A stretch of DNA of 40,021 nucleotides from Candidatus Bathyarchaeota archaeon (GTDB lineage Archaea; Thermoproteota; Bathyarchaeia; Bathyarchaeales; DTEX01). The DNA is taken from contig QMXE01000003.1 of NCBI GenBank assembly GCA_003661975.1, positions 1 to 40,021 on the forward strand, read 5' to 3'. Made by a program: the position numbers and the translations under genes. Shown here piece after piece: positions 4,762 through 7,009 of this stretch. Position 1 is the stretch's first letter; every line of letters starts with the position of its first letter. The notes below the pieces were generated by a model. The model was given only the letters and a program-made list of their open reading frames with translations, was not told the DNA's origin and did not search any database.

Positions 4762-5145
4762 GTGATGAGTGAGGATGAAGAGAGGATCTATGTGATCCAG
4801 AGGCATCAAGCGTCACATTTGCATTGGGACCTACGCTTAGAGATGGATGGGGTTTTGAAGAGCTGGGCGGTCCCAAAGGAGCCCCCTACAAGAAGCGGTA
4901 TAAGAAGACTTGCAGTTCAAGTTGAGGATCACCCGATAGAATATGCGAATTTTGAGGGTGTAATCCCGGAGGGGCAGTATGGAGCGGGCATAGTTGAGAT
5001 CTGGGATAAGGGAACATACAGGCTGATAGAGCGAACCCCAGACAAGATAGTCTTTGAGATTCATGGGAAACGGTTAAAAGGTAAATACTGCCTAATAAGG
5101 TTTAAAGGGGAGAAGAATTGGCTTTTCTTCAAGAAGAAGCAGTGA
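4762..5145 (+). CDS. stand-alone DNA ligase D 3'-phosphoesterase (PE) domain protein
   Basis: [64 protein letters not shown] are LigD PE signature segments. Confidence 0.93.
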
Positions 5146-5146
5146 G

Positions 5147-5641
5147 TTGATGATGGATCGCAGAAGATACACGATGCTCGATGCGATCTCAGAAGTTCTC
5201 TCCGAAAAGAGGTCGCCAAAGAGGCTTCCAACCGGTGTGGAGCGAGTTGAGAGGATCAGCTCAGACATCATTAGAATCCAATTCGCGGATGACGTGGACT
5301 ATGGCATTCTCAGAGCTGAGGCCGTAAGGGAGGGATATCGCGTTGAAAGCGGCATGTTCACCCCGAGAATAACATATCATGGCACGATCATAGCTCGTGT
5401 CGGCGGGGAATCTGACCCTGCAAAGCAGAGGAGCATCTTCATATATCTGATCCCGCCGGATAAGAGCGAGATGAATACATACAGGAGGGTCGTCGCCGTC
5501 AGGCATGGGGTGATCGATCCCATAACTGGACGTCTAAACTTCCAGAAATTCCTTGAATATAACCTTAAGATCATCAGGCTGCTGGAGAGATATAGAAAGG
5601 CCAGATATGAGAATCTGCCCGAAAAGGTAGAATTCCATTAA
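5147..5641 (+). CDS. hypothetical protein
   Basis: 164-aa ORF starting 1 nt after the PE stop, followed by a T-rich tract; no motif recognised. Confidence 0.7.
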   Translation: MMMDRRRYTMLDAISEVLSEKRSPKRLPTGVERVERISSDIIRIQFADDVDYGILRAEAVREGYRVESGMFTPRITYHGTIIARVGGESDPAKQRSIFIYLIPPDKSEMNTYRRVVAVRHGVIDPITGRLNFQKFLEYNLKIIRLLERYRKARYENLPEKVEFH

Positions 5642-5669
5642 TGACATTCGTCTGTAGGCCTATTTTTTA

Positions 5670-5715
5670 TTTATTACTGATTGGTAATATTTAAATATTA
5701 CCAATCAGTAATAAA
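5670..5715. promoter_or_regulatory. 46-bp perfect palindrome centred on a TTTAAA TATA box; putative double operator of the wHTH-hsp20 operon
   Basis: TTTATTACTGATTGGTAATATTT followed by its exact reverse complement AAATATTACCAATCAGTAATAAA; centre about 26 nt upstream of GTG 5719. Confidence 0.85.
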
Positions 5716-5718
5716 AAT

Positions 5719-6135
5719 GTGGCGAGACCCATGGGATTGAAGATAAGGCTCATAAAGGACGAGGAGGTGCTCCTGGAGATCCCAATATCAGTAGCCGAAT
5801 GGTCAAGGGAGAACCTAGAGAGCGAGATGAACATGATCGAGGAGGAATTCCAGAAGTTCTCGAGGATCTTCAGCGCACTATCCAATGAGACATGCATGAA
5901 GATGATGTGGAGATTCATGATGAAGGAGGATTCATCGCTGAGGTTCGCCGAGCTGATGCAGAGTCTAAACCTAAATCCGAAGATAGTATGGGAGAATCTT
6001 GGGAGGCTCAGTGAATGCGGATTCCTAGAGAAGATCGGGAGGGGAAGATATAGATGCTCAGAGTTCGGACGAAAAGCCTTCATGCTGATGGGTCTCGCCA
6101 TGAGGCAAATACTCGATGCAATTGAAGAAATTTAA
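5719..6135 (+). CDS. ArsR-like winged-helix transcriptional regulator
   Basis: IFSALSNET..., FAELMQSLNLNPKIVWENLGRLSECGFLEK...GRY fits an ArsR-type wHTH pattern. Confidence 0.8.
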   Translation: MARPMGLKIRLIKDEEVLLEIPISVAEWSRENLESEMNMIEEEFQKFSRIFSALSNETCMKMMWRFMMKEDSSLRFAELMQSLNLNPKIVWENLGRLSECGFLEKIGRGRYRCSEFGRKAFMLMGLAMRQILDAIEEI

Positions 6136-6150
6136 TGGAGGTGAGTAAAA

Positions 6151-6738
6151 TTGACGGATGAGTGGGACAGATGGTTCAGGAGGAGATTCCCATTCTTTAG
6201 AGGGGGAATATTCGATGACATCGATAGGATATTCAGGGAGATGGAGGAGATGATGCGGAGGGAATTCGAGGAGTTCTCAAGGATCACACCAAAGAATCTC
6301 ATACGTGAGAGGACATTGCCTGACGGCTCAAAGATACGTGAGTGGGGCCCATTCATCTATGGATACAGCGTTACGATAGGCCCGGATGGGAAGCCTGAGA
6401 TCAGAGAGTTCGGCAACGTAAAGCCCGAGATGAAACTTGGAGGTCCAAGGATAAATATCAGAGAGGAGAGGGAGCCGCTCGTTGATGTGATGGAGACAAA
6501 TAATGAGGTTAAGGTTATCGCTGAGCTTCCGGGAGTCGAGAAGAAGGACATTAAGCTCTACGGGACAAAGGATACATTGACGATCTCAGTTGATACTCCG
6601 GAGAGGAAATACTACAAGAAGGTTAAGTTGCCATGCAGGGTTGATAATAAGAGCGCTAAGGCATCATACAAGAATGGAGTTCTAGAGGTTACACTGAAGA
6701 AGGAGAAGGAGCCAGAGGGAGAGCCGATACTGCTGTAG
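6151..6738 (+). CDS. hsp20: archaeal small heat shock protein Hsp20
   Basis: GPFIYGYSVTIGPDGKPEIREFGN, EPLVDV, AELPGVEK, ASYKNGVLEV; SD GGAGGTGA upstream of TTG. Confidence 0.96.
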   Translation: MTDEWDRWFRRRFPFFRGGIFDDIDRIFREMEEMMRREFEEFSRITPKNLIRERTLPDGSKIREWGPFIYGYSVTIGPDGKPEIREFGNVKPEMKLGGPRINIREEREPLVDVMETNNEVKVIAELPGVEKKDIKLYGTKDTLTISVDTPERKYYKKVKLPCRVDNKSAKASYKNGVLEVTLKKEKEPEGEPILL

Positions 6739-7009
6739 ACCCCTCCACCCCTCTTTCCCAAAACATTTTTCCTTAGCCCCAAGTTCTTTCATGCTGATGG
6801 ACTGAGGGTTCACAAGAGATTTTAAACAGTAGCGATCTCCGCCAGATATATCTGTGGTTGCGGAGCGTATGAATCCTGTTCTATATGGGTAAGTGCGTAA
6901 AGAGAGGCTCATGGATACTCTGCATATATAAGCGCGAAAATGATGAATACTGCACTGTTAGGCTTGTTAGGGCTGAAATGCCAAAGGATAAGAGTGGGAT
7001 GATTAGGGC

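Follow-up and report, generated by a model that had tools for sequence, protein, structure and literature searches.

A winged-helix regulator and its candidate TTAC-N6-GTAA operators at an hsp20 operon promoter in Bathyarchaeia

What does a perfect palindrome do at the promoter of a small heat-shock operon? The question is raised by a stretch of 40,021 nucleotides (nt) from a Candidatus Bathyarchaeota archaeon (NCBI GenBank assembly GCA_003661975.1, contig QMXE01000003.1, positions 1 to 40,021), the whole of which we call the window. Here a palindrome of 46 base pairs (bp) lies in front of a gene for a winged helix-turn-helix (wHTH) protein, and this gene is followed by hsp20. The original prediction took the palindrome for two operators of an autoregulatory repressor and proposed a new archaeal heat-shock regulon. 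Our analysis suggests that a dimeric repressor, sitting on two dyads that flank the TATA box, quite probably controls the regulator-hsp20 operon and is released by proteotoxic stress. In this model we infer the binding, the direction of regulation, the transcription start and the nature of the signal. The promoter and the regulator gene contain the following features:

5670..5715, no strand assigned: perfect 46-bp palindrome with both operators and the TATA box inside (inverted-repeat search, DNA folding, identity in G004)
5672..5689, no strand assigned: putative operator O1, TATTAC-tgattg-GTAATA, with core TTAC at 5674-5677 and GTAA at 5684-5687
5690..5696, + strand: putative TATA box TTTAAAT, read from the sequence and seen at the same position in orthologous promoters
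5696..5713, no strand assigned: putative operator O2, TATTAC-caatca-GTAATA, with core TTAC at 5698-5701 and GTAA at 5708-5711
5719..5730, + strand: inferred transcription start (about 5719) and short leader with the Shine-Dalgarno (SD)-like GGCGAGA at 5721-5727 (TATA spacing, relatives)
5731..6135, + strand: regulator gene, ArsR-like winged helix, 134 amino acids (aa) from ATG 5731 (138 aa from GTG 5719)

The palindrome agreed in coordinates and letters with the original prediction, that is, two self-symmetric dyads around TTTAAA (5690-5695). Its arms (5670-5692 and 5693-5715) are 23 nt each and 100% complementary, with a gap of 0 nt. The 18-nt operator pattern, with at most one mismatch, was matched three times in the window against 0.05 expected, and 0 of 100 shuffles gave three matches. 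The single-stranded fold of the palindrome reached −18.5 kcal/mol, compared with −3.1 ± 1.48 kcal/mol for 200 shuffles (z = −10.41, none as good). In the whole assembly of the source genome (1,775,367 bases, 207 contigs, 92.94% complete), O1 and O2 are the only exact 18-nt sites. The identical palindrome was found with different flanks in another species of the same genus (G004), and an assembly artefact is therefore unlikely. The perfect 46-bp symmetry is common to the window and G004 only.

We looked for the regulator at three levels. Among the closest relatives, strong orthologues were present in 21 of 41 genomes, including G000 (loci L005-L025). The family was found in 93 of the 301 genomes sampled from the class (E ≤ 1e-10) and in 28 of the 401 genomes sampled from the phylum (E ≤ 1e-8), 12 of these 28 lying outside the class. 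All strong matches from the closest relatives, the 30 best class-level loci and 20 hand-picked distant ones together gave 63 orthologous loci. For each locus, the 450 nt 5' of the wHTH domain were taken as the upstream zone, and the rest of the locus served as comparison. We found at least one TTAC-N6-GTAA core in the upstream zone at 61/63 loci and at least two at 53/63. In total, 126 sites fell into the 27,955 nt of upstream zones and a single one into the remaining 185,775 nt. Recurrence of the motif before orthologous regulators was the check that the original prediction had put forward, and the core recurred across the class and beyond it. The inference of an autoregulator stands because of this recurrence.

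The symmetrised consensus of the sites was WWA-TTAC-Y-WWWW-R-GTAA-TWW, with a fuller dyad ATTACC-N4-GGTAAT; TTAC and GTAA were fixed by the search, and the consensus is informative for the surrounding bases. Spacers vary from genome to genome. In distant orthologues (31-36% identity) a flanking base is altered, giving GTTAC-N6-GTAAC. Nine loci were fetched from other classes of the phylum, and TTAC-N6-GTAA was found at the TATA box in seven of them, an N7 version in one and no site in one.

We then defined a tandem pattern as two TTAC-N6-GTAA cores with 0-14 nt between them and used the reversed pattern as control. The tandem pattern was present in 55/301 class genomes, compared with 4/301 for the control. 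The regulator was encoded in 54 of these 55 genomes, so that the pattern occurred in 54/93 regulator-positive and 1/208 regulator-negative genomes, counts that overstate independence because the genomes are kin. Where a regulator-positive genome lacks the tandem pattern, it mostly has another layout, for example a single site or sites set further apart. The layouts observed at the orthologous loci were as follows:

Two sites bracketing the TATA box, 22-24 nt from start to start: 12 loci, the layout of the window itself
Bracket plus a third site that overlaps the second (shared GTAATTAC, 14-nt offset): 10 loci
Two overlapping sites, both downstream of the TATA box: 7 loci (L013, L015, L017, L088, L091, L122, L124)
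Upstream site plus a downstream site shifted by about 15 nt: 6 loci, all of one genus
GTTAC-type brackets 33-34 nt apart: 4 loci
Two sites about 20-22 nt apart: 6 loci, before regulators with a 95-aa N-terminal extension
Single sites or other spacings: the remaining loci with a site

A site that abuts or follows the TATA box is nearly constant among these layouts, and the upstream site is optional. A conserved site at or over the transcription start implies a repression geometry in which recruitment of RNA polymerase would be blocked. Occlusion of the B recognition element (BRE) may have been added in some lineages, including that of the window. The original prediction had two dimers occluding the promoter from both sides. 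The bracket does exist here and elsewhere; it is one architecture among several, and its upstream half is facultative.

The positions of the two sites in the window fit this geometry. Transcription would start at about 5719, roughly 26 nt past the centre of the TATA box, and orthologous promoters carry TTTAAAT or TTTATAT at the corresponding place, between or before the sites. With +1 taken as about 5719, O1 covers about −47 to −30 (the BRE position), the TATA box −29 to −23 and O2 about −23 to −6, directly abutting the TATA box. GTG 5719 had been proposed as a leaderless start codon, and this is unlikely. A methionine equivalent to that of ATG 5731 (MGLK...) is the first residue in 29 of the 35 homologue rows of alignment A1 (36 sequences, the window regulator included), and the match of the family profile to the window gene begins at 5731. 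A GGCGAGG-like stretch before the start codon is kept in relatives and its reading frame is not (L009 and L008, one with an in-frame stop and one out of frame); for this reason we read GGCGAGA as a Shine-Dalgarno element in a short leader. The true start is probably ATG 5731, and GTG 5719 would mark roughly the transcription start. Contigs of an RNA library (one sample, related strains) cover 5847-6800 and give no cover at 5657-5809.

What kind of protein might bind these sites? The original prediction named an ArsR-like wHTH gene downstream of the palindrome. The gene is present and a wHTH appears in the structural model, with a weak match to the ArsR type: the open reading frame (ORF) 5719-6135 matched Pfam HTH_5 with E = 0.0077 and 16.5 bits, below the cut-off of 22. 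DUF7347 (PF24038) gave 15.7 bits for the window protein and 26.6-26.7 bits for close homologues, all under the cut-off of 27.6, and some homologues are listed under DUF7347 in the precomputed annotation of the database. NCBIfam NF033788 (ArsR) gave 18.4 bits against a cut-off of 55. In the predicted structure (AlphaFold, predicted local distance difference test (pLDDT) 78.6), a beta-hairpin (8-22) and a long helix (30-52) precede a wHTH with wing (56-113) and a C-terminal helix (115-137).

The best Foldseek match was 1y0u (E = 0.014, TM 0.31/0.43, 87 columns), with ArsR/MarR matches at E = 0.014-0.04, and the best VIA-align match was 3cuo (Z = 6.6, root-mean-square deviation 3.6, 96 aligned residues). 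These searches returned generic ArsR, MarR, PadR and Sso10a folds, with scores in the range that the tool calls common and no row outstanding. When the family profile was run against PDB sequences, the top match was 6j0e (ArsR, E = 0.0012). The 202-aa chain 2p4w, which we take to be Phr of Pyrococcus furiosus, was matched with E = 0.017 over residues 4-71 alone, no better than ordinary ArsR proteins, and it was absent among the rows listed by Foldseek and VIA-align. NCBIfam NF053602 (Phr_regulator), a narrow model of type 'exception', matched the wHTH region only (E = 0.027, 14 bits against a cut-off of 320). The best match of the Phr model in the own genome had 28 bits against the same cut-off of 320. 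The regulator appears to be a distinct family, probably of the ArsR superfamily, and is not Phr/HSR1.

A model of two copies supported a symmetric homodimer. The homodimer score was 0.69 against 0.00 for the best control, a mark reached by 20/30 proteins solved as same-chain pairs and by 1/23 solved as single chains. The runs agreed in at least 54% of contacts, and the partner pLDDT was at least 72. In the modelled interface the two chains meet through the hairpin, helix 1 and the C-terminal helix, whereas neither the recognition helix nor the wing takes part. Half-site centres 10 bp apart would suit recognition of two successive major grooves by one dimer. Y111-R112-C113-S114 (YRCS) in the wing is among the invariant residues, and C113 is the sole invariant cysteine in the 36 sequences.

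The gene behind the regulator is clear. It had been described as hsp20 with a strong Shine-Dalgarno sequence, and both parts are borne out: PF00011 gave 39.4 bits (cut-off 20.8), the archaeal Hsp20 equivalog NF041800 gave 189.9 bits (cut-off 140), and GGAGGTGA stands just behind the regulator. The features of this part are:

6137..6144, + strand: Shine-Dalgarno sequence GGAGGTGA of hsp20, 1 nt past the regulator stop codon
6151..6738, + strand: hsp20, small heat-shock protein, 195 aa, TTG start (Pfam, NCBIfam)
6766..6770, + strand: T5 run past hsp20, a possible archaeal terminator (from reading the sequence)

The hsp20 gene is beside the regulator in 20 of the 21 orthologous loci of the closest relatives. 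One RNA-library contig spans the gap between the two genes (6079-6176), at most a weak hint of co-transcription.

How far does the regulon extend? In the own genome, the 18-nt pattern with one mismatch was found at 4 places, against 10 for the reversed control. ATTAC-N6-GTAAT was found 4 times against 2 for the reversed control, ATTAC-N5-GTAAT and ATTAC-N7-GTAAT had 0 matches, and TTAC-N6-GTAA was found 11 times against 9 for N5 and 11 for N7. Outside the operon, the sites either fall within ORFs or at ORF ends or contain spacers rich in G/C, and were therefore treated as chance. Two further hsp20 genes and two thermosome genes of the own genome had no site, the best approximate matches having 3-4 mismatches per 10 specified bases; a third, cut thermosome match (C142) was left out of this inspection. 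A tblastn search of the own genome with ClpB, the TraB-like protein and the HExxH-motif protein described below detected nothing (best E = 0.004). In this genome the circuit appears, from its sites, to control only its own operon. An Hsp20 paralogue with the same N-terminal style and a TATA-like box is encoded on contig C21 of this genome (18948-19202(−)); there is no operator in the approximately 45 nt before the contig end.

Other genomes show wider targets. In G022, the regulator (two sites, no hsp20 match beside it) and hsp20 are on different contigs, and this hsp20 has two sites bracketing TTTATAT, followed by an SD sequence and the start. Site pairs were also found before stand-alone hsp20 genes in G089 and G098. 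An hsp20 gene that has been relocated from the regulator keeps its operators in these three genomes, which implies that the element acts in trans. Ten extra loci with the tandem pattern were inspected, and seven had chaperone, protease-like or TraB contexts:

G089, L140: site pair, stand-alone hsp20
G098, L141: site pair, stand-alone hsp20
G123, L139, 1-1959(−): site pair before ClpB
G231, L135, 1234-2052(−): site pair before a TraB/PrgY/GumN-family gene
G167, L137, 1042-1743(−): site pair before a TraB/PrgY/GumN-family gene
G263, L136, 2109-2699(+): site pair before an unnamed protein of 173-196 aa
G098, L142, 2260-2781(+): site pair before the same type of unnamed protein

Of the other three, one lies before a second copy of the regulator (G112, L144), and two seem to be chance or unclear contexts (G043, G322). 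The unnamed protein of 173-196 aa has an LLHEYLH motif (HExxH-type, metalloprotease-like) and no Pfam match, and its operator pairs occur in two families of the class. Judging from these sites, the protein may belong to the stress regulon as a new member. In G167, a ferritin-like gene is divergent from the operator pair. The word regulon in the original prediction is thus too wide for the own genome, with one operon and with no site at thermosome or paralogous hsp20 genes, and it fits the wider targets in other genomes.

The mechanism that we favour can be described as follows. The 134-aa winged-helix protein would act as a symmetric dimer, with each dimer on one dyad of 16-18 bp and on one face of the helix, as the half-site centres are 10 bp apart. 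One dyad would lie over the BRE and the other would fill the space between TATA box and start, so that occupation of both would block TFB/TBP assembly and the recruitment of RNA polymerase. The bound regulator would repress its own gene together with hsp20. Proteotoxic stress, most likely heat, would release the repressor and the operon would fire; newly made repressor would then reset it, which amounts to negative autoregulation. The circuit would serve this operon alone in the own genome, and other genomes would add stand-alone hsp20, ClpB, TraB-like and HExxH-motif genes. The original idea of an autoregulatory wHTH repressor is supported by the orthologous promoters, the co-occurrence of pattern and regulator, the operators that move with hsp20 and the dimer model.

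A bolder version, to which we would give somewhat less than an even chance, adds a third family to the archaeal heat-shock repressors, one with a distinct structure and of an age that would explain its presence in most sampled orders of Bathyarchaeia and in other classes of the phylum. Temperature would be sensed by the repressor itself: heating would melt a dimer formed by an N-terminal strand-exchanged beta-hairpin and a helix, which Phr and ordinary ArsR proteins both lack, and TTAC-N6-GTAA would thereby be freed. The regulon would grow and shrink around an hsp20 core, with ClpB, TraB-like and HExxH-motif genes in some lineages, and an extra 95-aa domain would be fused to the regulator in some.

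Several points weigh against a heat-released repressor on TTAC-N6-GTAA. Two loci (L118, L119) of a subfamily with 26% identity have no TTAC-N6-GTAA in the upstream zone, and a third locus of that subfamily (L120) has a lone core site 370 nt upstream that may be chance. The relatives are not independent samples, and the distant loci were chosen by hand. The success of the dimer model may reflect likeness to solved ArsR/MarR dimers. RNA-library contigs of related strains, confined to 5847-6800, cannot reveal the transcript end. An archaeal site upstream of the TATA box can also activate. The invariant C113 in the wing would allow a thiol or redox signal in place of heat. The term heat shock derives only from the identity of the target gene, because no other stress gene of the own genome carries the site. 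Beside these points, we observed that L118, L119 and L120, all from one genus, share another element, TTAAC...GGTAATTAAG, just 5' of a TTTAAATA-like box. This element may mean that the specificity of the divergent subfamily has changed.

The signal is the part of the model with the strongest competitor. The same protein-operator pair could respond to thiol, oxidative or other proteotoxic stress through C113, or to titration by unfolded clients or Hsp20, a reading that we regard as a minor but real possibility. It would suit the single invariant cysteine of the YRCS motif and the ferritin-like gene in G167, and ClpB and HExxH targets fit general proteostasis as well as heat. However, the constant partner is hsp20, an archaeal Hsp20 equivalog; the ten extra loci inspected included neither a peroxidase nor a thioredoxin target; and one cysteine per subunit makes a weak redox switch unless two wings meet. 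The direction of regulation could also be different. On the upstream dyad the regulator could recruit TBP/TFB and so work as an activator or in a dual role. Archaeal activators bind just upstream of the TATA box, O1 is just 5' of the TATA box, and many orthologous promoters have an upstream site. Still, it is a site immediately 3' of the TATA box, or one over the start, that is kept universally. In seven promoters the upstream site is missing and both sites, which overlap, lie downstream; six more promoters likewise have all their sites downstream, either as pairs 15-16 nt apart or as a group of three. The TATA boxes are close to consensus and do not need help. We therefore consider activation improbable.

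The two remaining explanations concern the palindrome as such. It could act through DNA structure, as a supercoiling- or temperature-sensitive cruciform with or without a protein, and the 23-bp arms are perfect, the hairpin is strong on each strand (−18.5 kcal/mol per strand) and the sequence is identical in G004. However, symmetry of the whole palindrome is confined to this lineage, and many orthologous promoters have tandem sites that are unable to form such a cruciform. We compared the paired sites of 23 distinct promoters of the bracket type: their four inner spacer bases were complementary at 40/92 positions (4/4 in the window's own pair included), which by our estimate is about the chance level for A/T-rich spacers. 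Invariant half-sites with variable spacers imply a dimeric protein site and not a selected cruciform, so the dyads, rather than the long hairpin, would seem to be what selection maintains. The cruciform idea of the original prediction is unsupported by conservation and very improbable as the function; the window hairpin could still extrude, though extrusion is not what is conserved. Alternatively, the palindrome could be no regulatory element: it might be an artefact of assembly or template switching, serve the upstream gene as a terminator hairpin, or bind some other protein. It begins 28 nt past the stop codon of the upstream ORF, and de Bruijn contigs break at palindromes. In two other studies, DNA contigs gave depth in every bin of 5657-5758, and no listed piece bridges the whole palindrome. 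In run X2 the longest listed DNA contig begins within it, at 5686; in run X3 one contig has a loose end at 5715, and its further sequence matches, by eye, the upstream flank of a same-genus relative in reverse complement. These ends look as if de Bruijn contigs had folded back or broken at a long palindrome. A non-regulatory palindrome is nevertheless hardly credible, given that the same architecture is seen in dozens of independently assembled genomes, that the TTAC/GTAA sequence is conserved and the pairing is not, and that the motif goes together with the regulator in nearly all genomes with the tandem pattern. An Rfam scan of the palindrome gave no family at threshold, with sub-threshold hairpin (miRNA precursor) matches alone.

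How does this candidate repressor compare with known regulators? In the accessible parts of three papers, Phr and HSR1 are the only archaeal heat-shock transcription factors described, both from Euryarchaeota and of one family (PMC9133787, PMC10653856, PMC5852551). In the accessible text of two papers from 2023, no such regulator is known in Crenarchaeota, and a regulator-free mechanism is argued for Sulfolobus (PMC10653856, PMC10746257). Phr and HSR1 are both placed in arCOG01684, and each regulates its own gene as well as hsp20 and an AAA+ ATPase, as far as the available portions of the sources state (PMC9133787, PMC6316755, PMC5852551).

HSR1 of Archaeoglobus fulgidus is similar in being an autoregulated wHTH protein, first in an operon with hsp20, with an inverted repeat in its own promoter, and it is proposed to block the transcription machinery at normal temperature (statements from the accessible text of PMC9133787 and PMC5852551). 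However, its binding motif is CTAAC-N5-GTTAG in the text available from PMC9133787, compared with TTAC-N6-GTAA here; the 5-bp spacer of HSR1 is replaced by N6, or by N7 at one locus outside the class. The two proteins show no specific relationship in sequence, and the HSR1 family is described for Euryarchaeota, another lineage. The regulons of HSR1 and Phr include a cdc48-type AAA+ ATPase according to excerpts of PMC10653856 and PMC5852551. In the own 93%-complete genome we found no further credible site and hence none for a cdc48-type gene, although cdc48 promoters were not checked singly.

Phr of Pyrococcus furiosus (PF1790) is, in the accessible parts of the sources, a wHTH protein of the ArsR superfamily that represses hsp20 as well as its own gene. 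It binds beside or across the transcription start and prevents RNA polymerase from being recruited (PMC9133787, PMC6316755). It requires TTTA, TGGTAA and AAAA around the transcription start, and TGGTAA contains the GTAA half-site core seen here (from the same parts of PMC9133787 and PMC6316755). Phr has a separate C-terminal portion, as the available text of PMC6316755 has it, whereas here a beta-hairpin and helix precede the wHTH and form the modelled interface. The Phr/HSR1 architecture of an N-terminal wHTH and a long C-terminal part (about 200 aa) is not found in this protein of 134-138 aa. As with Phr/HSR1, a palindromic putative site stands at the promoter of the regulator's own hsp20 operon and at stand-alone hsp20 genes. 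The system would thus work like HSR1 in operon layout, autoregulation and dyad operators, and would differ in sequence model, architecture and spacer length.

Likenesses outside this group are more general. ArsR/SmtB and MarR repressors would share the fold class and the dimeric palindrome-binding logic; unlike them, the window protein has only sub-cut-off Pfam matches and an added N-terminal beta-hairpin. RheA of Streptomyces albus, one of several bacterial repressors of small heat-shock genes, is reportedly a dedicated autoregulated repressor of essentially one such gene, hsp18, and itself the presumed thermosensor. The logic of a single-operon circuit would be the same, whereas the promoter is bacterial and the protein family unrelated. 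The motif of CzcR sites in Pseudomonas, as printed in the accessible text of PMC8469834, is aTTAC-N6-GTAAT with an A/T-rich spacer, the same string as ours. CzcR is a bacterial two-component regulator of metal efflux genes, of another protein class and domain, so the motif match is coincidental. In the literature searched, in the portions available to us, the string ATTAC-N6-GTAAT was found for bacterial CzcR-type regulators only (PMC8469834), and the search, supplementary tables aside, gave no description of this regulator family or of archaeal use of the motif. The original prediction did not recognise the motif and held it to be different from those of Phr and HSR1, and both the comparison of motifs and this search agree. 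The candidate novelty here is the regulator family and its TTAC-N6-GTAA operator in archaea; autoregulated wHTH-hsp20 control was already known from Phr and HSR1.

The regulator-operator pair before hsp20 in Bathyarchaeia and related classes is a concrete candidate for a phylum without a known thermal-responsive regulator, and it consists of a protein of 134 aa, a site of 16 bp and the promoter geometry predicted above. The operator layouts (TATA brackets, overlapping tandem sites, three sites, displaced downstream site) form a natural series on how operator position relates to the strength of archaeal repression. Because these organisms are uncultured, comparative reconstruction is the main route to their regulation.

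We also recorded some observations on the source of the DNA and on related genes. A homologue 68% identical to the regulator carries the source label 'ArsR family transcriptional regulator [Candidatus Bathyarchaeota archaeon]', and one with 50% identity is labelled 'Thermoproteota archaeon'. DNA near-identical to the window was found in public runs labelled as hydrothermal vent, marine sediment and sediment metagenomes. Upstream of the operon, gene 4762-5145 encodes a LigD 3'-phosphoesterase domain (PF13298, E = 2.7e-40), and the following ORF (5147-5641, 164 aa) has no Pfam or NCBIfam match. In same-genus relatives the C-terminal coding sequence of this 164-aa ORF is likewise directly 5' of the operator. 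A T6 run (5663-5668) lies between the ORF and the palindrome.

Fused regulators with a conserved N-terminal extension of about 95 aa, which has no Pfam match, occur in at least six genomes (G010, G016, G029, G039, G014, G152). The fused-form loci are:

L074, 1495-2187(−)
L075, 2545-3258(+)
L076, 2012-2710(−)
L077, 2064-2753(+)
L078, 2332-3048(−)
L128, 1492-2187(−)
L066, 2098-2444(+), also of this form

The fused genes have a TATA box and then two operators in front. The extension shows a conserved D...E-C-G pattern, which may resemble PD-(D/E)xK nuclease folds. Finally, contig C14 of the own genome (L160) carries two adjacent paralogous genes, 1550-2041(−) and 2042-2557(−), of 163 and 171 aa. 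Each has a C-terminal wHTH (weak HVO_A0261_N/HTH_5 matches), and they are the source of weak secondary hits of the regulator. ORFs of 174-195 aa that resemble these paralogues recur in relatives.

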